This document shows positions 7,732 to 43,464 of a DNA stretch of 64,000 nucleotides, in pieces. Numbering within the stretch: the first letter of the stretch is position 1; every line of letters starts with the position of its first letter. A model generated the notes under the pieces. The model was given only the letters and a program-made list of their open reading frames with translations, ran no database searches and was not told the origin of the DNA. The stretch is from Leucoraja ocellata (lineage: Eukaryota): positions 3,534,001-3,598,000 of the forward strand of contig JAWMAR010000231.1 in the NCBI GenBank assembly GCA_036785375.1. The letters are read 5' to 3'. The position numbers were made by a program, and so were the translations under genes.

Positions 7732-8842
7732 ATCAAAATGGATTTGGAGCCACAAGGACACAGATAATCGATGATCCATGATAGATTGTACTTCAACAAA
7801 TTTTGTACCCATCGAAGATGTTGTTGACTTTTCCACACTCCAACTTGCTCTATGATGACACTAAAATGTTGGCTAATGTACCTGATTAATATGGTAGCTG
7901 GGAAATCAAAATATGTTAGCATAAATTTACAGTATACACTCAACACAAAGGTGAAGAATTACCTTTGTCGTGCATATTCAGAGGTAGAAATGCACCACAG
8001 TTTCCTGAACATGCATTTCAAGAAGTGTGCTTCACTGACAAGGCCAGACGTTATCTCCATCTGCAGTAACCCTTTGAGATTTTATATATTTTCATAATTG
8101 TTCTCAACACAAATCCTCTCAAGACAAGTATATCATTGCTTTACTATGAGCTGGCATTTCACAAAATGGATTTTAAAATCCATGAAAAAGCCTTTTTGTG
8201 AAAAAGGATAGTTGACCTATCACAGCTGTGCTAACTCTTTGGTAGAACTTTCAAATCAGGTCTCTGTGGAACATTGGAGCTGAGCCTGCTTCAAGAATCC
8301 TTTAAAACATTAAACATATGTCATGCAAAAAAGCTGCAATAAATTGGTGCTGTGTGGTTCCCAACCCTTGAGTTAAATGAAAAAAATATCCTTGGTTGCC
8401 TATTCTTCCTCGTGTCCGGCCATCTTCTATATCACGTCTTTCCGGTCGGTCAGTGACGGTTGACGGTCGGTGGTTGCAGAATTGGCTACTTCAGTCAGTC
8501 ACTGCGATACAGTTTCTGTCTTCAGCATTGCCCGGGAAGCGCCACGTGGAGGCTTCTGCTTGCATCCCTGGTTACCTATCAATGTCGTTTATGCTTTGGG
8601 CAAAGAGTGTTTGGAATGTATATATTTTTAAAGACTAAAGCTGAGTTAATTCAATCAGAAACATGCAGAAAGTTTGACAGAATCTGTGTAAAAAGAAACA
8701 GATAATATTTTAGATCCAAGGACTGGGAAAAAAATAGTGAGAATAACCTTCATGTAGCAGCGAATGTGGCAGATGGGAACATCTGGATGAAGGGATTATC
8801 TCTCAAAAGTTAAGATGACCTAACTTTATGTATGATAGCGAT

Positions 8843-31630: not shown

Positions 31631-32257
31631 TTTGCCTTCTACAATTCACAATTTATTAAAAAGAACAAAAATCTATGCAGGAAATCTGAAAGATAAGATT
31701 GAAACTAATGAAAGGAAAGCATCTGTTTTAAGACAAGCACATTAGATTTTAACCTTCAAAAATGGGGGGGGGGTGGTGAGAGGTAGGAGACTTTTTAGTT
31801 TAGTTTAGCTTGCGAACAGGTTCTTCCACCCACCAAGTCCACATTGATCACCCGTTCACGTCAACAGGTGGAGAGATGTTAAATTTAAATACTGTAAATC
31901 TCAGGCTGGCATCAATCTAACTCAAACTGTTCACATCTGTATTTACAGGAATTGAATAAAACTGTAGAAAACCATTCAGCAGATGGGTCCTCAGTTAAAT
32001 ATTATCTCAAAGGTCTGTGCCTCCTCATCATTCTCTATTTGAAATTTAATCTACTGGGCCTGGAAAGTAAACTAAGCCCTTCTTCGTTCTTACGGATCTA
32101 GTCTAGTTGCATCCCTCATCGACCATTTTCAGCATGCGGCCCCTCATGCATGCACAAAATCGCAGATGTGGGGGATCTGAGTAAAATCAAAACATTCTTA
32201 AATACTCAGTAGGTCAGGCAGTGTCAGTGGAGAGAGAAGCATGGTTGACGCTTCATG
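31631..32257 (+). repeat. Left arm of a 627-bp inverted duplication
   Basis: Reverse complement of 42839-43464, roughly 97% identical by eye. Confidence 0.97.
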
Positions 32258-32665
32258 CTGGAGAAACTCAGCGGCAGCATCTATGGAGCAAAGGAATAGG
32301 TGACGTTTCAGGTCGATCCTTCTTCAGACTGGTTCTTCAGTCTGATAAAGGGTCTCGACCTGAAACTTCACCTTGTAGTGGCCTGGATGAGGTCAGGAAA
32401 AGATCAGATGCCAGGCAGGTTCAGAAGTCGTTTTTGAAACAAGGCAAAAAACCAGAACGCCTGTGAGCAGGACCCGGGAAACCCCGTGGGCAGACAATCG
32501 TCCCTGTCCCTCAAGAGCCGAGGGGGGATGACCCAAGGAGTGCCCTAGCCCCTAGGAACCGCCACAACCTTTTCCTTTGCTCCATAGATGCCGCCTCACC
32601 CGCTGAGTTTCTCCAGCATTTTTATCTACCTTTGATTTTTCCAGCATGTGCAGTTCTTTCTTAAC
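32255..32665. mobile_element. Palindromic Penelope-like pLTR relic with hammerhead-like cores on both strands, interrupted by a solo LTR
   Basis: Arms ctggagaaactcagcgg..catctatggagcaaagga and tcctttgctccatagatg..ccgctgagtttctccag. The minus-strand core CUGAAGA-AGG(AUCGA)CCU-GAAAC-GUC lies at 32327-32302. Confidence 0.75.
32374..32566 (-). mobile_element. Solo LTR (193 bp), TG...CA ends, 4-bp TSD ACCT
   Basis: ACCT(32370-73)|TGTAGTGG...CCGCCACA|ACCT(32567-70). Removing it restores the pLTR sequence. Strand is inferred weakly. Confidence 0.8.
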
Positions 32666-32693: not shown

Positions 32694-35600
32694 ATGGGGT
32701 TAATAAAGGTTCAGAAGTTAGCCTACCCCCGACCCTCACCCGACCCTCGACCCTCACCCGACCCTCGGCCCTCACCCGACCCGCGACCCTCACCCGACCC
32801 GCGACCCTCACCCGACCCTCGGCCCTCACCCGACCCTCGGCCCTCACCCGACCCTCACCCGACCCTCGGCCCTCACCCGACCCTCGGCCCTCACCCGACC
32901 CTCGGCCCTCACCCGACCCGCGACCCTCACCCGACCCGCGGAGCCCAACTGTCCCGCGGAGCTGGAGAACGCCAGGTGAGCCCCGGAGCTGGAGAACGCC
33001 ACCCGACCCGTGGAGCTGGAGAACGCCATCCGACCCGTGGAGCTGGAGAACGCCATCCGACCCGTGGAGCTGGAGAACGCCACCCGACCCGTGGAGCTGG
33101 AGAACGCCACCCGACCCGTGGAGCTGGAGAACGCCATCCGACCCGTGGAGCTGGAGAACGCCATCCGACCCGTGGAGCTGGAGAACGCCATCCGACCCGT
33201 GGAGCTGGAGAACGCCATCCGACCCGTGGAGATCACCCGACCCATGGAGCTGGAGAATGCCACCCAACCCGTGGAGATCACCCGACCCGTGGAGCTGGAG
33301 AACGCCCCGGAGCTGGAGAACACCCCGGAGCTGGAGACCGCCACCCGACCCGCTGGGCTGGAGAACGCCAGGTAAGCCCCGGGGCTGGAGACCATCAGCA
33401 GAGCCGCGGGGCTGAAGACCGCCTGCGGAGTAACGCAGACGCGGAGCAACGGAGCGGCAGAACACCAGCGCGCACCAAGCCAGCTTGGCCCACCAGAAGC
33501 ACCAACAGACGGCGACGCATACGAAAACACCGCCGGGGACGCAGAGGTGGGTTAAAGGCCAGGTTAGAGCTAGCCCCACACAGGGCAGCGATTCCTAGCC
33601 TTTTCCTCGCCAACCTGCGCTCACTGGCAAACAAAATGGATGAACTCCGGCTAAGGATCACCTCCCACAACTGGATCAAGGACTGCAACATCCTGATCTT
33701 CACGGAAACTTGGCTCAACACTGACGTTCCTGACAGCGCCATCCAGCTATCGGGGCGTCATTTACTCCGAGCGGACAGGACGTCAGACTCCGGTAAGACC
33801 AGAGGTGGGGGCCTGTGCATTTATGTAAATAAAGCATGGTGCACGGACTCCACCATCATCGAGAGTCACTGCTCAGCTAACCTTGAGTTCCTCTTGGGTA
33901 GATGCAGACCGTTCTATCTGCCCAGAGAGTTTACCTCCACTGTTGTGACTGCAGCCTATATCCCTCCTGATGCTAATGCCAAGCTTGCAATGAAAGAGCT
34001 GCATACTGCCATTAGCAATCAACAGACGCACAACCCCGAGGCAGCCTTCATTGTTGCGGGTGACTTCAATCACTCCAACCTGAAGACTGTACTCCCCAAA
34101 TTCCACCAACATGTCTCCTTCCCCACTAGAGTAGACAAGACACTGGACAAAGTCTACACCAACATGGCTGAAGCTTACAAAGCCATCCCCCTCCCCCACC
34201 TTGGTCAGTCTGATCACGTCTCATTGTTCCTGCTCCCTAAGTACTCCCCACTCATCAGACGGGTTAAACCAACTGTGAGGACAGTTAAAGTCTGGTCAGA
34301 GGAAGCGGACTTCGCACTTCAGCAGTGTTTTGGAAACACTGACTGGAAGGCGTTTGCAGCCCAGGCCACCCTTGAATCCCACACGGACATTGATTCCTAC
34401 ACATCCTCTGTTCTGGACTTTATAAACTCCACCATCAATAGTGTCACCTCCCTCAAACAGGTGACCATATTCCCGAATCAGAAGCCATGGATGAACAGCG
34501 AGGTCAGGCTACTGCTGAAAGCATGGGACACCGCTTTCAGGTCAGGCGATGCTCGAGCCTACAGTTCATCCAGGGCTAACCTGAAGAGGGGTATCAGGAA
34601 GGCCAAGCACTGCCATAAGCTCAGGATTGAGGAGCACTTCAACAACAACTCCGACCCCCGACGCATGTGGCAAGGCATCCAGGCCATCACGGACTACAGA
34701 CCGTCCAACATCACCCCCACATCCAGCGACTCCTCCTTCCTTGAGGAGCTTAATCACTTCTATGGCTGCTTCGACAGGGACAATCTAGAGACAGCCTTCA
34801 AGGCTGTGCTACCTGCCAATCACCAACCCCTCACACTCACCCCCTACGACGTATACGTGGCACTGAGTAGGACTAATGCACGTAAAGCTGCTGGCCCTGA
34901 CGGCATCCCCGGGCGCGTGCTCAGTGCCTGTGCTGCGCAGCTGACAGACGTCTGGACTGACATCTTCAACCTGTCACTTGCCCAAGCAGTTGTCCCCACT
35001 TGCCTTAAAACCACCTCCATCGTGCCAGTGCCAAAACACTCCACTGCGGCAAGCCTCAACGACTTCCGCCCAGTTGCACTTACCCCCATCATCACCAAGT
35101 GCTTCGAGAGGCTGGTCCTGGCACACCTCAAAAGCTGCCTACCCCCCACACTGGATCCCTATCAGTTTGCCTACCGCAAGAACAGGAGTACGGAGGATGC
35201 CATCTCAACGGCACTTCACTCCGCCCTCTCCCACCTCGACAACAGAGCCACTTACGTAAGAATGCTGTTCATCGATTACAGCTCAGCATTCAACACCATT
35301 ATACCATCAAAACTGATCACCAAACTCGGTAACCTGGGCATCGACCCCTCCCTCTGCAACTGGATACTGGACTTTCTAACCAACAGACCCCAGTCTGTTA
35401 GGTTAGACAAGCACACCTCTTCAACCCTCACCCTGAACACCGGCATTCCACAGGGCTGTGTGCTGAGCCCCCTCCTCTACTCCCTCTTCACCTATGACTG
35501 CACACCTGTACATGGTACTAACACCATCATCAAGTATGCAGATGGTACAACGGTGATTGGCCTCATCAGCAACAACGATGAGCTGGCCTACAGGGAGGAG

Positions 35601-36222
35601 GTCCAGCACTTAGCAGCATGGTGAGCTGACAACAACCTGGCCCTTAACTCCAAGAAGACCAAGGAGCTCATTTTAGACTTCAGGAAGTCCAGAAGCGGCA
35701 CGCACACCCCCATCCACATTAACGGGACGGAGGTGGAACGTGTTTCTAGCTTCAGGTTCCTGGGAGTCAACATCTCCGATGACCTCTCTTGGACCCACAA
35801 TACCTCAACTGATCAAGAAGGCTCACCAGCGTCTCTTCTTTCTGAGGAGACTGAAGAAGGTCCATTTGCCTCCTCAGATCCTGGCGAATTTCTACCGCTG
35901 CACCATCGAGAGCATCCTTACCAACTGCATCACAGTATGGTATGGCAATTGCTCTGTCTCCGACCGGAAGGCATTGCAGAGGGTGGTGAAAATTGCCCAA
36001 CGCATCACCGTTTCCTCGCTCCCCTCCATTGAGTTTGTCCAAAGCAAGCGTTGTCTGCGGAGTGCGCTCAGCATCGCCAAGGACTGCTCTCACCCCAACC
36101 ATGGACTGTTTACCCTCCTACCATCCGGGAGGCGCTACAGGTCTCTCCGTTGCCGAACCAGCAGGTCGAGGAACAGCTTCTTCCCGGCGGCTGTCACTCT
36201 ACTCAACAACGTACCTCGGTGA
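32694..36222 (+). pseudogene. Rex1 endonuclease-reverse transcriptase ORF with lesions
   Basis: EN motifs (LANLRSL.NK, FTETWL, GGGLCIY, AGDFN, TLDKVY, SDH) and RT motifs (FRPVAL, FIDYSSAFNTI, GIPQGCVLSP). Catalytic YADD reads YADG (35535-46), there is an in-frame TGA at 35622-24 and a frameshift near 35805, and the frame continues in 35740-36222. Confidence 0.92.
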
Positions 36223-36386
36223 CTGCCAATCACCACCCCCCCCCCCGGACACTTATTATTATTTATTCAAATCAGTTGCTATGTCGCTCTTCCAGGGAGA
36301 TGCTAAATGCATTTCGTTGTCTCTGTACTGTACACTGACAATGACAATTAAAATTGAATCTGAATCTGAATCTGAATCTGAATCTT
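32700..36386 (+). mobile_element. Near full-length Rex1/Babar LINE, disabled
   Basis: APE endonuclease, RT and Rex1-type C-terminus; 3'UTR with ATTAAA and (TGAATC)n tail. 5' boundary uncertain. Confidence 0.92.
32728..33420 (+). repeat. Compound minisatellite: 18-bp (CCCTCACCCGACCCTCGG)n then 27-bp (CCGTGGAGCTGGAGAACGCCATCCGAC)n
   Basis: Read directly. Unit lengths are multiples of 3, giving long repetitive ORFs on both strands. Confidence 0.95.
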
Positions 36387-36624
36387 ATAATAGAAAGATT
36401 AATAGTGAGATTAAACGAGTACTTACCAGTACGAAGTTTGATCTGTATTTTATGAGGAGTTACGATGAGGGATTACGTGAAGAACCCACCCAGTGCGCAG
36501 GCGCGGCATACTTCCAAGCAGCGGTGTGGAATCACAGGTAGACACAATATTGAAGTAAAGATAGTAAAGATTAAAGAAACATCAGCTCGAGTTTGATCTA
36601 TACAACGAGGGTGGGAGCGGAGGG

Positions 36625-36737
36625 CACGTAATCCCTCATCGTAACTCCTCATAAAATACAGATCAAACTTCGTACTGGTAAGTACTCGTTTAATCTCACT
36701 ATTTTACTTCGGAGTCACGTGAGTGACTACGTGAAGA
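36625..36737. repeat. Internal complementary region (ICR) of the young DIRS
   Basis: 36625-36703 is the reverse complement of 36401-36479, and 36701-36737 is the reverse complement of 41179-41215. The two halves overlap at ATT. Confidence 0.95.
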
Positions 36738-36897
36738 CTTCAAAGGTCTGTGATTTCAAACCGTGTAACAGCTATATCACTCACTGCCGAAGTTCATCGA
36801 GGGAGGAAGTGGTATCTAAAGACCAACGAATTTGTTAGTTTTTTGAAACAAAATTGTTTATTTAACAATAACAAAAATAGCTCCCCTGGGCTTTAAA

Positions 36898-37851
36898 TTA
36901 TAAGTTTGCAGATTCTAAAATTTTGTCCGCAAACAAGTCCTTCTCCATCAGCGGTTTGTGGTAGAATTTCCGGAACGTTGATTCCCTTGACCATCCCGCT
37001 GTACTAAGGATGTGGTCTATGGGAACCTGCATCCGTTCCGCCGCTGACGTGGACGCTGCCCTGGTAGAATGGGATTTAAAAACATCCGTGTTAATCCCCG
37101 CGGCTTTTAAGACCTGTTTCAACCACCTAGATATTGTCTGGCTGGTAACCCGTCCAAAAGGCTTTTTGTGGCTGACCCATAAGGCTTTTTCACTCCCTCT
37201 AAGCGTTTGGGTTGTGTCTACGTAGTTGTATAGATGGGTCACTACACACAGCCTAGGTTCTGGAGGATAGGCCCGGAAGATTAACGGAGAGTTGGGCATA
37301 CCTGGCCTGCTTTGTTTTACCAACCCCGGCATGGTAAATGTAATGGAATCTGGGGTGGTTAACATGTTGTCCAGTCTTAGTTGATGCAGCGACTGAACCC
37401 TTTGTGCAGAGACGAGCGCCATGAGCATGAGGGTCTTGAGAGTGGACTGCTCCAGACTCAAGGATCCCACCGGAGGCCAACCTCTAAGGTGTGACAAAAC
37501 TACACTTACATCCCATACATGGGTGTATCTGGGTGTAGGAGGTTTAGTATTATAAATCCCTTTGAGGAGTTTTATAACCAGAGGGTGGGATCCAATGCTG
37601 TGATGTCCTGTAGGCATAAGGTAAGCGGACAGGGCGCTCCGTGCTGCATTGATGGCACTGTAGCTCATCTTTTGGTCATGGTGCAAGTGGGCCAGGAATT
37701 CCAGCACATCCGTGATCGAGGCTGTCTTGTATGATGTCCCTGCATCCAAGCAGTACTGCTCCCATTTCTTGATGTAGGTCAAGTACTGTTTCTTGGTAGA
37801 GACTCGCAGGGACGCCGACATGGTGGTGATTGTTCGTTCCGATAACCCCAA
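36898..37851 (-). CDS. DIRS tyrosine recombinase
   Basis: Uninterrupted 317 codons with an N-terminal SAM-like part and catalytic R (SAQRV), K (VKQSR), HSTR, W (AGWS) and Y (FRKFY). The listed start is TTG; the first ATG is at 37821. Confidence 0.92.
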   Translation of the reverse strand: MGLSERTITTMSASLRVSTKKQYLTYIKKWEQYCLDAGTSYKTASITDVLEFLAHLHHDQKMSYSAINAARSALSAYLMPTGHHSIGSHPLVIKLLKGIYNTKPPTPRYTHVWDVSVVLSHLRGWPPVGSLSLEQSTLKTLMLMALVSAQRVQSLHQLRLDNMLTTPDSITFTMPGLVKQSRPGMPNSPLIFRAYPPEPRLCVVTHLYNYVDTTQTLRGSEKALWVSHKKPFGRVTSQTISRWLKQVLKAAGINTDVFKSHSTRAASTSAAERMQVPIDHILSTAGWSRESTFRKFYHKPLMEKDLFADKILESANL

Positions 37852-37868
37852 TCCCTGGTAAGGCCTGT

Positions 37869-38303
37869 TCAGAACCTACAAACCAGGAGTTTCAATTTTT
37901 GATGGTATGGATGGCTTATGCCGGATACCGGATGAGTCAATAGTTGTGGGTGGCTGTGAAAAACCATAGGTGACTCTACCACCATGTCGTGGAAAACTGG
38001 GAACCATGGTTGGGTAGGCCAGTCGGGTACGACCAGAATACCTGAAGCCGAGTCTGCTTGTATTTTCTGGAGTACCCGGCTGATGAGGCAGAAGGGAGGG
38101 AAAGCATAGAAGAAGAAATTTCCCCAATCCAGCGTGAAGGCATCTACCGCTGCTGCCTCTGGGTCTGGTTCCCAAGCCACATACATGGGTAGCTGGTGAT
38201 TTAATCTAGACGCAAACAAATCTATATCTGGCGTACCATATTGCTTAACAATTCTAGCAAATATTTTTGGGTCTAACATCCATTCGATGTTGTCATTGAA
38301 TTT
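37869..38303 (-). CDS. DIRS methyltransferase-like domain (N6-adenine MT type), in frame with RT-RNase H after a TGA
   Basis: Motifs DIDLFASRLN and YAFPPF, then LVVPDWPTQPWF. Confidence 0.85.
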   Translation of the reverse strand, partial: KFNDNIEWMLDPKIFARIVKQYGTPDIDLFASRLNHQLPMYVAWEPDPEAAAVDAFTLDWGNFFFYAFPPFCLISRVLQKIQADSASGILVVPDWPTQPWFPVFHDMVVESPMVFHSHPQLLTHPVSGISHPYHQKLKLLVCRF

Positions 38304-39810
38304 TCATGACCTGGTGTCCGCCACTGTGTTTAGCTTGCCTGGTAAATAGGCAGCTGATAGCCAAATATGTCTCTCGACACACCATTGCCAGATTATAGTA
38401 GTCAATTTGTCGCATGATACTGATTTTATGCCACCCATGTGCCGGATGTAAGACACCGCCGTCGTGTTATCAATCATTAACCTGACATGCACGTGCCGCA
38501 TATCGGATGCATATGCTTTTAGCCCATAAAAGGCGGCCAGCATCTCCAAATAATTTATGCCAAGTGATTGTAGTAGCGATGCCTCTGAATTAGTCCATCT
38601 GCCACCTGTGCTGGATATAGAGTTAGTAGCTCCCCAGCCTAAAGCACTGGCATCCGTTGTAATGGCTATGTTAGGATTGGTGACGGCGATAGGACTGTAA
38701 CTGTGCCAAATGTTATCCACCCACCACTGAAGTTCTGTTTTGGCTTCAGCGGGTAAGTCCATAGTTCGGTCATAATGCCCCCTACTTAGACGTAGTGCAC
38801 GTGTCCTTGCTCTTTGTAAATTCTGATAATGCAAGGGACCATATTGTGCAGCTGGAAATGCTGCTACTATACTACCAATGACTCTGGCTACATGCCGGAT
38901 CTTTGGTTGTGTTTTTGCGATTAAGTTGTTACAGGCTTCTGCTAATGCAGCCTTTTTGTCTCTTGGCAGAGTGACAGTCATACGGATAGTGTCGATAGTG
39001 AAGCCTAGATAGTCCATGTTAGTTGTTGGCTTCAATATTGATTTATCTGGGTGTAGAACAAATCCCAATGTTTCAAGGAGTTGTTTAGTAGCTAAGACTC
39101 CTGCGACAGCTAGTTCCCTTGTTCTCCCCAATATGAGAACATCATCCAGATAGGCCATGACTAAATGTTTTTGTTCTCTTAATTTTTTCATGGCCACTTT
39201 GAGAATTTTAGTAAATAATCTGGGAGCTGTCGTTAAACCATTGGGTAATGCTCTATACTGCCATAGTTGCCCCATCCAGATAAATTTCAGATATCTGAAA
39301 TGATCCTTATGAATGGGTACTAAATAGTAGGCATCCTTAATATCTATGCTTGCCATGAAGTATCCCTTGGAGATCATGTTGTCTGGCAGTAACAAATGTC
39401 TCCATTTTGAAATGTTGATACTCAACAGACTGATTTAGTGATGTCAAATCAATAATAATGCGACATCCACCATCTTTTTTGGTTTTGATAAATATATTCG
39501 ATACAAATTCCAATGGCTCGTGTCTGGCCCTCTCAATGACGCCTTTGGACACGAGCCTATCTAGTTCAGCTTGTCCTTCTACCTTCTCTAATTGTGTGGG
39601 AAGGAATACCCTTTGGGGTATGTGCTGAACCGGCGGTTCTATGCCTGGTTTAAATTCAATTTTGTATCCACTGATACTGTTGAGTATGAACTTGTTGTTA
39701 GTAAAGGAGCACCAAACATGTTTGAAGAACCTTAAACGCCCTCCTGTTAATACAACACCCTTTGTCTGCGTATGTTGACAGGAACCAGACCCACCTACCT
39801 CCATGTTCAT
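38304..39810 (-). pseudogene. DIRS reverse transcriptase-RNase H, with one +1 frameshift (~39380) and a TGA at 38306-38304
   Basis: GGRL, KKDGGCRIIIDL, FKMET / SIDIKDAY, LPNGL, YLDD, TTDASALGWG, INYLEMLA, IDNTTAV, NTVAD. Confidence 0.92.
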
Positions 39811-41033
39811 TTCTGGGAGCGTTTGCGATGGGTTTGGCCCGAGGGTGTCCTTGTTGGTGCTGTGGTGGGGCGGCGTATCTTCCCACGGCTCCGCTCTGGG
39901 CCCCGCTCTAAAAAAGAGCTCTGGGGGTAGTGGGAAGCGGTCACCAGGCTTTCACCAGCTCGGTACCTGCTGGTGGATGCCGAGGCGTGCTGCCAACTGG
40001 GTGTCTTCACCCTGCTCGGTCCTGGCCCTGCCCTCATGAGGCCTACAGGCTTGGCCGCCTCTTCCAGCTCCTTGAGCCTTTTCGCCAAGTCGGCCCCGAA
40101 TAGTAGCGCCTCCTTTTCTGGCGCCGGAGCTTTGCAAAGGCCCGCGTATTTGGGGTTGAGGGCAGGCCTGATGTTTTCACGCCTTAAATTGTTGAGCTCA
40201 TACTGCGTGTTACACATTAGGGCCAGCACGTCCTGCTGAGGTGTAGAGAGCTCCTCGTTCCCCGTGGACCGAGCAAAGGCGGTAATGGCTGCGGTGTGGA
40301 GCTTCAGGATACGCTGCATCTTCAGCTCTTGTGTCCTGACATGCTGCCCCAGCTGGCTCCATATCTGGCCGTTTACGGTCTTTACTCGAAGCGCTTCGCA
40401 GTTTTCCGGCGCTGTGTAAGTGTCGAGGGCCTCTTGTAAGATTTTCTCCTGCAATGGCTTATTGGAGAGCCTGTTGATACTGGCCGCCATTCTTGGCGCT
40501 AGCATCATTCCGGTCCTCGGGGGCGCCGCATACCTGCTGACTACACCCAGTAGCTCTTCTTCCTCCAGCTCGCCTGGCATGCTTGCGCTGTCGTCCGCCT
40601 GCCCTTGTGATAGGCCAGCCCAGTCCTGGCCTCCCTTACTGACCTCAAACAAGGAGGGAACAGAAGGGTGTGGTGATGGTTTGGAGGAGGCCACAGCCCG
40701 TCCTCCTTGGAGATGCCTTGCCTGCATCTCCTCCTCGAGCATCTGCTCGAGCAGCTGCCTTATGCAGCTTAAGCGGCTGTCTCCCCGTTTCGCCGGTGGA
40801 GAGTGTTCCCGTTCCTCCGACGAGTCGGAGGCCACCGGCCGGTCTGTTTTTCGGGTTGATTTTCTCCCTGTGCGGGGCATCGCAATCGGCGGCACAGGGA
40901 GCGGCTCGGCGTCGGGTGTGCGGGAGCGTTCAAACAGCTCCTCCGCCGCTGGTGGCTGCCGCCCAGATATTGACCCCTCCTCGGGTGGAGTTGGGCAGGC
41001 AGTCCTCTTTGTTGGTCGCTTGCGGGTAGCCAT
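39807..41033 (-). CDS. DIRS ORF1 (gag-like), 408 aa
   Basis: Uninterrupted ATG-initiated ORF in the ORF1 position, with PENC...VN..IW and LFG.DL segments. Its stop overlaps the pol ATG (ATGA). Confidence 0.85.
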   Translation of the reverse strand: MATRKRPTKRTACPTPPEEGSISGRQPPAAEELFERSRTPDAEPLPVPPIAMPRTGRKSTRKTDRPVASDSSEEREHSPPAKRGDSRLSCIRQLLEQMLEEEMQARHLQGGRAVASSKPSPHPSVPSLFEVSKGGQDWAGLSQGQADDSASMPGELEEEELLGVVSRYAAPPRTGMMLAPRMAASINRLSNKPLQEKILQEALDTYTAPENCEALRVKTVNGQIWSQLGQHVRTQELKMQRILKLHTAAITAFARSTGNEELSTPQQDVLALMCNTQYELNNLRRENIRPALNPKYAGLCKAPAPEKEALLFGADLAKRLKELEEAAKPVGLMRAGPGPSRVKTPSWQHASASTSRYRAGESLVTASHYPQSSFLERGPERSRGKIRRPTTAPTRTPSGQTHRKRSQK

Positions 41034-42838
41034 AGCTTTCCTCCGTTAGCGACTCTCTGTAATACAAAAGACTCACTTACCTGAGGACTTGTCTTTATCC
41101 TGCCGCTGGAGAGCCTGGCTCCAGCTGCTGCCGCTGTTGCGCTGCTGACGTAATGCCGCGCCTGCGCACTGGGTGGGTTCTTCACGTAGTCACTCACGTG
41201 ACTCCGAAGTAAAATCGAGAACTTACCGTTTGAAGTTTGATCTTTATTTTATGTGAAGTTGAAGTAAGCGAATACGTGAAGAGCCCGCAAGCCCGCATGT
41301 GCTTCAATTTTCAGAGCAACTGTATGAAACCACAGACCAGTTGCAGAACATAAACTATAGAAAGATTAACGAGCCTAGAGTTACCGGCTGATCTTTTATG
41401 AGAATCAGGGTTGGGAGTGGAGGGCACTCCCTCCACTCTCTCACTTCAACTTCTCATAAAATAACGATCAAACTTCAAATGGTAAGTTCTCGTTTAATCT
41501 TTCTATTTTATTTCGAAGTCACGTGAGTGACTACGTGAAGCCTGCAAAGCTATGTGGTTTCATGCAGTAACCCAATCTGCGTGTGAAACACTTAAACAGA
41601 TAAAACCATAATTGGCAGAAAGACGTGGGTTATTAACAACATGATGCTAACTTGCATCCATAGCCATTGCTCTTAATTGGACCATAGTCCCAATTGGCTT
41701 TGAGTTAGACAATAACTCATGCCATACTGTACAGAATTATTTCTGCAATCATTCAGACATATTCAACCAAAATTTTATAACCTCCGAAAGTGCACTGTGT
41801 AAACCTCCTGCTGTTGCAAGAAGACGGACAAATGGGAATATCCATTCTATTGGCTGCTAATGAGCCACCAACAATCTCTTGAAAACTATTAATTAACAAT
41901 GAAGAAAGTATCCTTCATTGCATAGATACCCGCAAGCTCAGTGTACCTGTATACATAATAACACCCCCAATCTCTGATCTGGTGGATATGCTGGCAACTC
42001 CAACTTGTACCCAACCATGCCCATTTAGCTTTATGAGATCATTCCCATAACAAGCTACCCCCATGTCAGTTATGACCCAGAGTCCGAGCCGGAGATTGAG
42101 TAAAGGGTATGTTCTTTGTGCTGAATCAGCTGCTAAAGCATAATCAACATAAGATTCTGCTCCCATGAGGAAAACAGTAGATGAATATCTGCATAATAAT
42201 TTACTGATATACATTCTACACTACTATAGGATTTAGAGCAGTCATATAAAATACACTTTGCATTATGTTAGTCAACAATGGGAGAATAACCAATCATTAA
42301 TTGTCCCACTTATGGCACTATAGAGAATGACAAAGCAGCTCAAACAGTGTCAATTGTGCTGTAACATAATTGCTTCTCTGAGCGCAAGCTGAGAGAAACA
42401 CAAAGCTCTGCTACTTCTGTTTAAAAGTAGCTCACATGTCTTCTCCACAAAGTCCTATGCAATCGTGCAGAGCCAGCTGCAAGAGAAATAGGCTGAGGTA
42501 GCCATCACTCGTGACTTTGAGTAAAATGGAGCTTCTTTCAGCCGCCTTACCATGGGACACACGTGACTTCGAAATAAAATTAAGTGAGGATAGTGTTGGA
42601 TGAAGTGGACAGCAGATTAACTGGAAAGATGTTGAATATCAGTTTAGTTTATTATTACATGTACTGAGGTACACAGTCACTTGTGTCACCCAGCCCCACT
42701 TGGCTTCTATCTAACCTTAAATATTCCCGCCCTTCTCCACCCCTCCTTCACAATTTGTGTTGAGTTGGCATCAGGCTTGAGTTTTTTTAATTTTAACATT
42801 ATTTCCTCTCCTAATCGCTCCCTCTCTGCTGGCATCAA

Positions 42839-43464
42839 CATGAAGCGTCAACCATGCTTCTCTCTCCACTGACGCTGCCTGACCTACTGAGTATTTAAGA
42901 ATGTTTTGATTTTACTCAGATCTCCCCACATCTGCGATTTTGTGCATGCATGAGGGGCCGCATGCTGAAAATGGTCGGTGGGGGATGCAACTAGACTAGA
43001 TCCGTAAGAACGAAGAAGGGCTTAGTTTACTTTCCAGGCCCAGTAGATTAAATTTCAAATAGAGAATGATGAGGCGGCACAGACCTTTGTGATAATATTT
43101 AACTGAGGACCCATCTGCTGAATGGTTATCTACAGTTTTATTCAATTCCTGTAAATACAGATGTGAACAGTTTGAGTTAGATTGATGCCAGCCTGAGATT
43201 TACAGTATTTAAATTTAACATCTCTTCACCTGTTGACGTGAACGGGTGATCAATGTGGACTTGGTGGGTGGAAGAACCTGTTCGCAAGCTAAACTAAACT
43301 AAAACGTCTCCTACCTCTCACCACCCCCCCATTTTTGAAGGTTAAAATCTAGTGTGCTTGTCTTAAAACAGATGCTTCCCGTTGCATTAGTTTCAATCTT
43401 ATCTTTCAGATTTCCTGCATACATTTTTGTTCTTTTTAATAAATTGTGAATTGTAGAAGGCAAA
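42839..43464 (-). repeat. Right arm of the 627-bp inverted duplication
   Basis: Reverse complement of 31631-32257. Confidence 0.97.

Follow-up and report, generated by a model that had tools for sequence, protein, structure and literature searches.

The window analysed here (64,000 nucleotides, G000:C231:3534001-3598000, within the 3.44-Gb assembly of Leucoraja ocellata) carries at 36389-42580 one DIRS retrotransposon inside another. A young DIRS1-type element of 4.81 kb (36401-41215, minus strand) interrupts an older element of a different family 12 bp inside its end (hereafter +12), in the same orientation, and the insertion point is the triplet AAT, found at both borders of the young element (36401-36403 on the left and 41213-41215, its end, on the right). 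This nesting, described in an initial annotation of the window, is confirmed, as are its coordinates, the AAT crossover and the observation that both elements are bounded by AAT with ATT at the junction of their internal complementary regions (ICRs). The young element very probably entered a GATT-AAT-CG site that was already there, an A-to-T mutation having made this spot a favoured target of the normal kind. The same annotation had read the locus differently, proposing that the recombinase recognises related DIRS termini as att-like targets and that the mismatch between AAA and AAT records heteroduplex repair at the crossover.

The state of the locus before the insertion is preserved in an inverted segmental duplication, in which G000:C231:2324000-2343800 corresponds to window positions 17574-47566, 1.2 Mb apart, with 96-98% identity over blocks of 2-6 kb and several presence/absence differences. 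The duplicate locus (L198, at G000:C231:2330569), found via one T-variant row on the window's own contig, contains neither the young DIRS nor the adjacent long interspersed nuclear element (LINE), and reads AAAGT-AAT-AGAAAGATT-AAT-CGAGAACTTACC, with AAT at the target site and no insertion. As L198 carries the two old pieces joined, these were once contiguous: the 12-bp stub, AATAGAAAGATT, which is the extreme end of the old DIRS with the terminal AAT/ATT (36389-36400, minus strand), continues there directly into position 41216, where the remainder begins with CGAGAACTTACC (41216-42580, minus strand, ending in AAT at 42578-42580). The annotation had deduced that excision of the young element with one AAT rejoins the old one, and the duplicate shows this contiguity independently. 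Because the insertion-free duplicate already reads AAT, the triplet predates the insertion. Similar duplicate pairs on C1 and other contigs give many further pairs of filled and empty sites. Public contigs aligned over 36,000-42,900 were dominated by repeat copies, with no join spanning the insertion visible; the 42580 end of the old element, with the DNA beside it, is covered in all four runs, which shows presence only.

The old family itself has AAA at the site in question. Genome counts, here and below, are exact-pattern matches (a same-genome DNA search with the 130-bp terminus, in which common words are skipped, gave no match), and with the base left free AAA was found in all 100 listed of 547 matches, which answers the annotation's question of whether the old family has AAA or AAT. 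Non-A variants at that base occur in 214 termini and ICRs of all related families, with T in 28 of 100 listed (counted by eye). The old element's own ICR predicts AAA at the +12 site (TTT at 41493-41495), and the ICR of L198 retains AAA. The window copy and L198 also have 41254T, 41266A and 41269C in common, each seen in none of 21 comparable sisters (those of 30 loci that were alignable without gaps), and 35 substitutions separate their two old-element sequences in an alignment of about 1,420 columns. The closest relative of the young copy among 71 long hits is 99.0% identical to it, and with sisters this similar its arrival likely followed the duplication. The AAT is thus likely to be an older A-to-T point mutation and not a product of heteroduplex repair.

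The history of the locus begins with insertion of the old 1.35-kb DIRS at AAGT-AAT-TAAG, as seen in L198, and its subsequent decay by private changes including AAA to AAT, a change present in the duplicate and absent from both the family and the element's own ICR. The region was next duplicated, as the 96-98% identity shows, and the LINE and the young DIRS entered one copy only; their presence and absence are directly visible, and the order is suggested by the 99.0% identity of the young copy to its sisters. In this last step the tyrosine recombinase is likely to have carried out one effective crossover between the circle junction GTAA-AAT-AGTG and the target, placed between the second and third base of the triplet (AA/T), as the polarity of junction variants indicates, and no target bases beyond the common triplet would have been copied.

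This polarity is seen in triplets that deviate from AAT. Left junctions vary at bases 1-2 in 7 of 100 listed young flanks and at base 3 in none, and with the old-family pattern, in which base 3 is fixed, bases 1-2 vary in 10 of 100 listed; among right junctions, 3 of 100 listed differ at base 3 and none at either of the first two bases. Over the whole genome, 530 right-end motifs and 200 terminus motifs have a variant third base. Among the matches listed, AAC was found at 65 true right ends against 15 ICRs, and at 25 left ends against 39 ICRs (Fisher p 3e-7; sorted by eye, first 100 matches listed per motif), while AAA was not in excess at right ends (6 ends against 5 ICRs). Paralogs confirm that the variant triplets of L163 (GAT) and L166 (TAT) came from the target, and the pooled fetched loci gave ratios of 8:1 on the left and 1:3 on the right (p 0.05), with L160 as one exception. 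This suggests a single effective crossover at AA/T, the triplets being mosaics of element and target. As right junctions keep base 3 of the target, insertion into AAA should leave AAA there. Integron attC/attI recombination uses a three-base core with one effective crossover. The likeness to the DIRS junctions studied here is in working only, namely a putative single crossover in a three-base core (AA/T on the plus strand, N/TT in element sense); while the integron has one stem across the crossover, the young DIRS ICR is predicted to fold into a pair of hairpins that leave the AAT single-stranded in the middle (z -2.5). In the terminal hairpin, a paired subfamily change was observed between window positions 36660-36737 and loci L216 and L234 (GTAC..GTAC versus GAAC..GTTC), which suggests a conserved single-strand structure.

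The site entered in the window conforms to the ordinary target preference of the young family, WT(T/G)-AAT-(C/T). Young copies were sampled as 64 of the first 68 listed left-flank rows (three apparent duplicates were dropped and L118 was taken separately), both ends being read in 58 of these, with 12 further copies taken from matches to the terminal 26-mer. Of the 58, 55 have T or G at -1, 54 have a pyrimidine (C or T) at +1, and 53 carry AAT on both sides. In the matrix of relative site weights built from these 58 copies, the window site ATT-AAT-CG has a weight of 14, equal to that of TTT-AAT-CT. Outside DIRS ends lie 68 of the 71 young copies with both ends read, and all flanks of the 12 extra copies are non-DIRS. 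Same-sense insertion at +12 does not recur: a degenerate pattern for the right end of any related element followed by the rest of the old terminus from +12, with either AAA or AAT accepted, matches the genome once, in the window itself, and the old stub is absent among the 100 listed left flanks of the young family (of 511). The att-like recognition proposed for +12 finds no support in these two counts, nor in the standing of the site as a top-weight ordinary target.

A built-in control is offered by the opposite strand, on which each intact copy presents TTT-AAT-C at the same hexamer. Opposite-sense insertions there gave 16 matches (15 independent), all clean and two-ended, against 7.5-24 expected over all families, and the young family alone accounts for 2 independent cases against 0.6-1.8 expected. 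Behind the expected values are approximate totals, derived from motif counts, of 17,000 elements and 34,000 sites; the right-end motif has 14,029 matches genome-wide and the terminus/ICR motif 30,174, and the DIRS copies with intact ends are estimated at about 17,000. The hexamer is hit approximately at chance where AAT is offered and not where AAA is offered. In the opposite-sense products (L118-L133), almost perfect inverted repeats surround a loop of 6 bases.

An excess of insertions into DIRS sequences was detected at a different place, exactly at the ICR junctions and terminal AATs of other elements (position 0). The probe, one exact 53-mer consisting of a right end directly joined to the terminus motif, has 23 matches genome-wide against 1.0-4.4 expected. 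About half of right ends have the upstream type of the 53-mer (15 of 30 loci), which gives about 23 in an estimated 8,000, or some 0.3%; an early small-sample rate of 2-4% for junction-site insertions was discarded in favour of this genome count. Among the 22 matches examined, a left end was found in 19 and none within 6.5 kb in two, while one was not parsed. At nine loci (7 independent) the insertion lies between the halves of another element's ICR (L201 at G000:C1:2783300-2793200, L246-L248, L250, L251, L254, L255 and L257), where 0.02-1.0 were expected after motif weighting; L202 is a duplicate of the host of L201 in which the ICR is empty. Nine loci are head-to-tail at the terminal AAT, with one complex locus besides, and one such pair, of the same family and with 0 differences, is possibly a dimer circle. 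Head-to-tail pairs on one AAT, mostly of different subfamilies, were seen at L145/L203, L239, L241-L243, L249, L252, L253 and L256.

The insertions in L201, L254 and L255 cross subfamilies, because the diagnostic base at +17 is of the inserted type on one side and of the host type on the other. The crossovers lie in an identity block from -37 to +16, narrowed to -11 to +16 only in L255, and homologous recombination within this shared block is a live rival explanation for the ICR-junction insertions. Cross-family att-like targeting is likely to exist, as a rare event at position 0 and not at +12; of the annotation's proposal that related termini serve as targets across families, the part that holds is this rare excess at ICR junctions and terminal AATs, and the part concerning +12 does not. 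Tentatively, these vertebrate DIRS recombinases might have two target modes. In the common one, a short motif would be used with the AA/T crossover, the left junction holding bases 1-2 of the target and the right junction its base 3; the rare one would pair att with att at the ICR junction or terminal AAT, across subfamilies. The +12 insertion of the window would belong to the first mode, under whose motif the ICR-junction site scores near zero.

The annotation's version of the crossover, in which the young element entered an AAA target and AAT arose on both sides of it by heteroduplex repair, accords with the AAA of the family and of the ICR, but is very improbable given that the empty duplicate has AAT. 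The duplicate would have had to acquire this triplet later, either by conversion with the filled copy as donor or by exact excision of the element, and both routes are without support; excision would also require insertion before the duplication, yet the duplication is 2.5% diverged and the element only 1% from its sisters. Moreover, right ends have no AAA excess, and target variants at the third base are kept at the right junction and not converted. Hardly any credence is given to an artefact of assembly or of recombination between similar DIRS ends. The ends of the two families are indeed 71-88% alike and the assembly contains many duplicates, but both junctions are clean, the change from the diagnostic bases of one family to those of the other falls exactly at AAT, the young copy has its full length and an ICR match of 100%, and the empty duplicate displays the pre-insertion state.

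It is also conceivable, although unlikely, that the recombinase was drawn to DIRS ends as att-like sites and that the mutation to AAT merely set the exact crossover base, and several observations weigh on that side and against an ordinary insertion into a mutated site. Same-sense insertion into an AAT-mutated +12 site is a narrow class with an expectation of only 0.003-0.04 genome-wide, which makes the one case in the window improbable, unless it is counted together with every other position close to a DIRS end. By a hand estimate, about 0.3-0.5 young copies are expected in DIRS terminal regions and 3 of 71 were found there (L118, L145, L180). The opposite-sense insertions are split between 14 termini and 2 ICRs (one duplicate pair; binomial p 0.004) although the local sequence is the same, and the 23 position-0 matches exceed their expectation. 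As to the origin of the triplet, comparison with paralogous repeats as empty sites gave information on 19 of 58 sites, all embedded in repeats, with paralogs 68-88% identical, and in 6 of the 19 most paralogs have a triplet other than AAT while both junctions have AAT; conversion may take place at such other sites, the paralogs being too diverged to separate it from prior mutation. Against a general attraction to DIRS ends stand the opposite-sense +12 total, which is at chance, some 60 other AAT-mutated termini and ICRs without insertion, and the location of the great majority of young copies at unrelated sites. Insertion into a pre-existing, mutated target of the normal type is the reading preferred here.

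The young element has the features of DIRS1-like elements: a tyrosine recombinase open reading frame (ORF), a reverse transcriptase (RT), inverted terminal repeats (ITRs) with a right extension, and an ICR whose arms complement the two ends and overlap on a 3-bp junction. Its left ITR and 5' end (41153-41215) finish in AAT at 41213-41215, and its right ITR (36466-36509, 44 nt) is a 95% inverted match to 41153-41196. The ICR (36625-36737, circle junction ATT at 36701-36703) is 100% complementary to the element's own terminus over 79 nt (36625-36703), with a further complementary stretch of 37 nt. All coding regions are on the minus strand. The recombinase ORF (36898-37875, 325 aa) is open, has an HSTR motif and matches PF00589 (E 1.1e-8) and PF13495. 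A methyltransferase-like segment (37875-38303; Dam E 0.033 and PCIF1_WW E 0.009, both short of the cut-off) is separated by a stop from the RT/RNase H frame. The RT/RNase H region (38304-39951; PF00078 E 3.3e-16) occupies two frames split near 39.38 kb; it gave no Pfam hit for RNase H, and acidic motifs judged by eye may be those of RNase H. An ORF of 412 aa in the gag position (39807-41045) is without a Pfam hit. The NTT termini are without target-site duplication, as is apparent from AAT/AAT in 53 of 58 young copies and the single AAT in the empty duplicate. The terminal 26-mer, which occurs at the terminus and ICR of each copy and so gives 2 matches per copy, has 1,261 matches, corresponding to about 630 copies. 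The young-family loci L134-L215 fall into two groups by identity to the window copy (96-99% and 89-93%), which points to two or more subfamilies that share their ends.

The old element is a non-autonomous DIRS of about 1.35 kb, copies of which are 75-86% identical. Eight fetched loci (6 or 7 distinct copies, as some loci overlap) align to it over 1,310-1,355 nt at 75-84%, and this fixed length makes it a member of an old, gene-less family; the ORF list of the window contains no ORF of at least 150 aa in it. In ICR/terminus architecture, fixed length and lack of genes it corresponds to non-autonomous DIRS1-like elements. Its ICR (41422-41540, junction ATT at 41505-41507), which keeps the family's AAA, is 82% complementary; the 42580 end of the element agrees with the ICR over 24 nt only. 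The two elements are 88% alike in their ICRs over 83 nt and 71% alike in their terminal regions; as to the shared terminal motifs reported by the annotation, the 23-nt motif is complete in the old ICR and incomplete at the old element's 42580 end. A degenerate second DIRS end motif is present inside the old element at 42503-42530, 50 bp before its end, and also in the duplicate. The DNA to the left of 36389 is the tail of the LINE, a non-LTR retrotransposon (32725-36388, plus strand) with RT, a C-terminal domain of the ALKBH8_N type and a CTGAAT tail, which is absent from the duplicate and, by comparison with it, took the place of some 225 bp that had originally flanked the old DIRS. Tandem repeats occur in the 5' part of this LINE, and the loss of flank stops one base short of the old DIRS terminus. 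An inverted repeat of about 630 bp (31631-32260 and 42836-43464, core of 407 nt at 98%) flanks the entire stack of LINE and two DIRS elements, and is found in the duplicate with its arms about 2.3 kb apart.

In DIRS1-like elements, as outlined by Piednoel et al. (2011, PMC3266345), the 3-bp circle junction recombines with an identical genomic sequence, and the commonest ends are ATT/ATT/AAT. The young element agrees with that outline in ITRs, ICR, 3-bp AAT junction, ATT ends, the lack of any duplicated target sequence other than the common triplet, RT and tyrosine recombinase, with no family-level difference apparent from it, and the target motif beyond the triplet is measured here. Chromosomal DIRS1 hot spots in fish (PMC6387122) and TTT ends of DIRS in Xenopus (PMC9210276) are mentioned elsewhere. 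In Dictyostelium, DIRS-1 is described as preferring pre-existing copies, probably via recombination mediated by its tyrosine recombinase, whose specificity is stated to be experimentally untested (PMC7192593 and PMC5006619, citing Cappello 1984). The window resembles that system in having a DIRS inside a DIRS. Unlike DIRS-1 as there described, however, the young family is dispersed, with 68 of 71 copies outside DIRS ends and not most copies in DIRS, and self-targeting in this genome amounts at most to a fraction of a percent (the 23 among right ends estimated at 8,000). No account of a vertebrate DIRS entering an ICR junction turned up in the literature searched, although the Poulter and Goodwin reviews and Repbase reports may hold one. 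The nesting in the window is one chance event, the value of which lies mainly in serving as a worked control whose empty site is preserved in a duplicate. Weightier are the by-products, that is, the target motif, the crossover position and the few cases of a junction inserted at another junction, all of which merit a complete census. These junction-to-junction insertions may be a vertebrate trace of the mechanism behind the self-insertion of DIRS-1.

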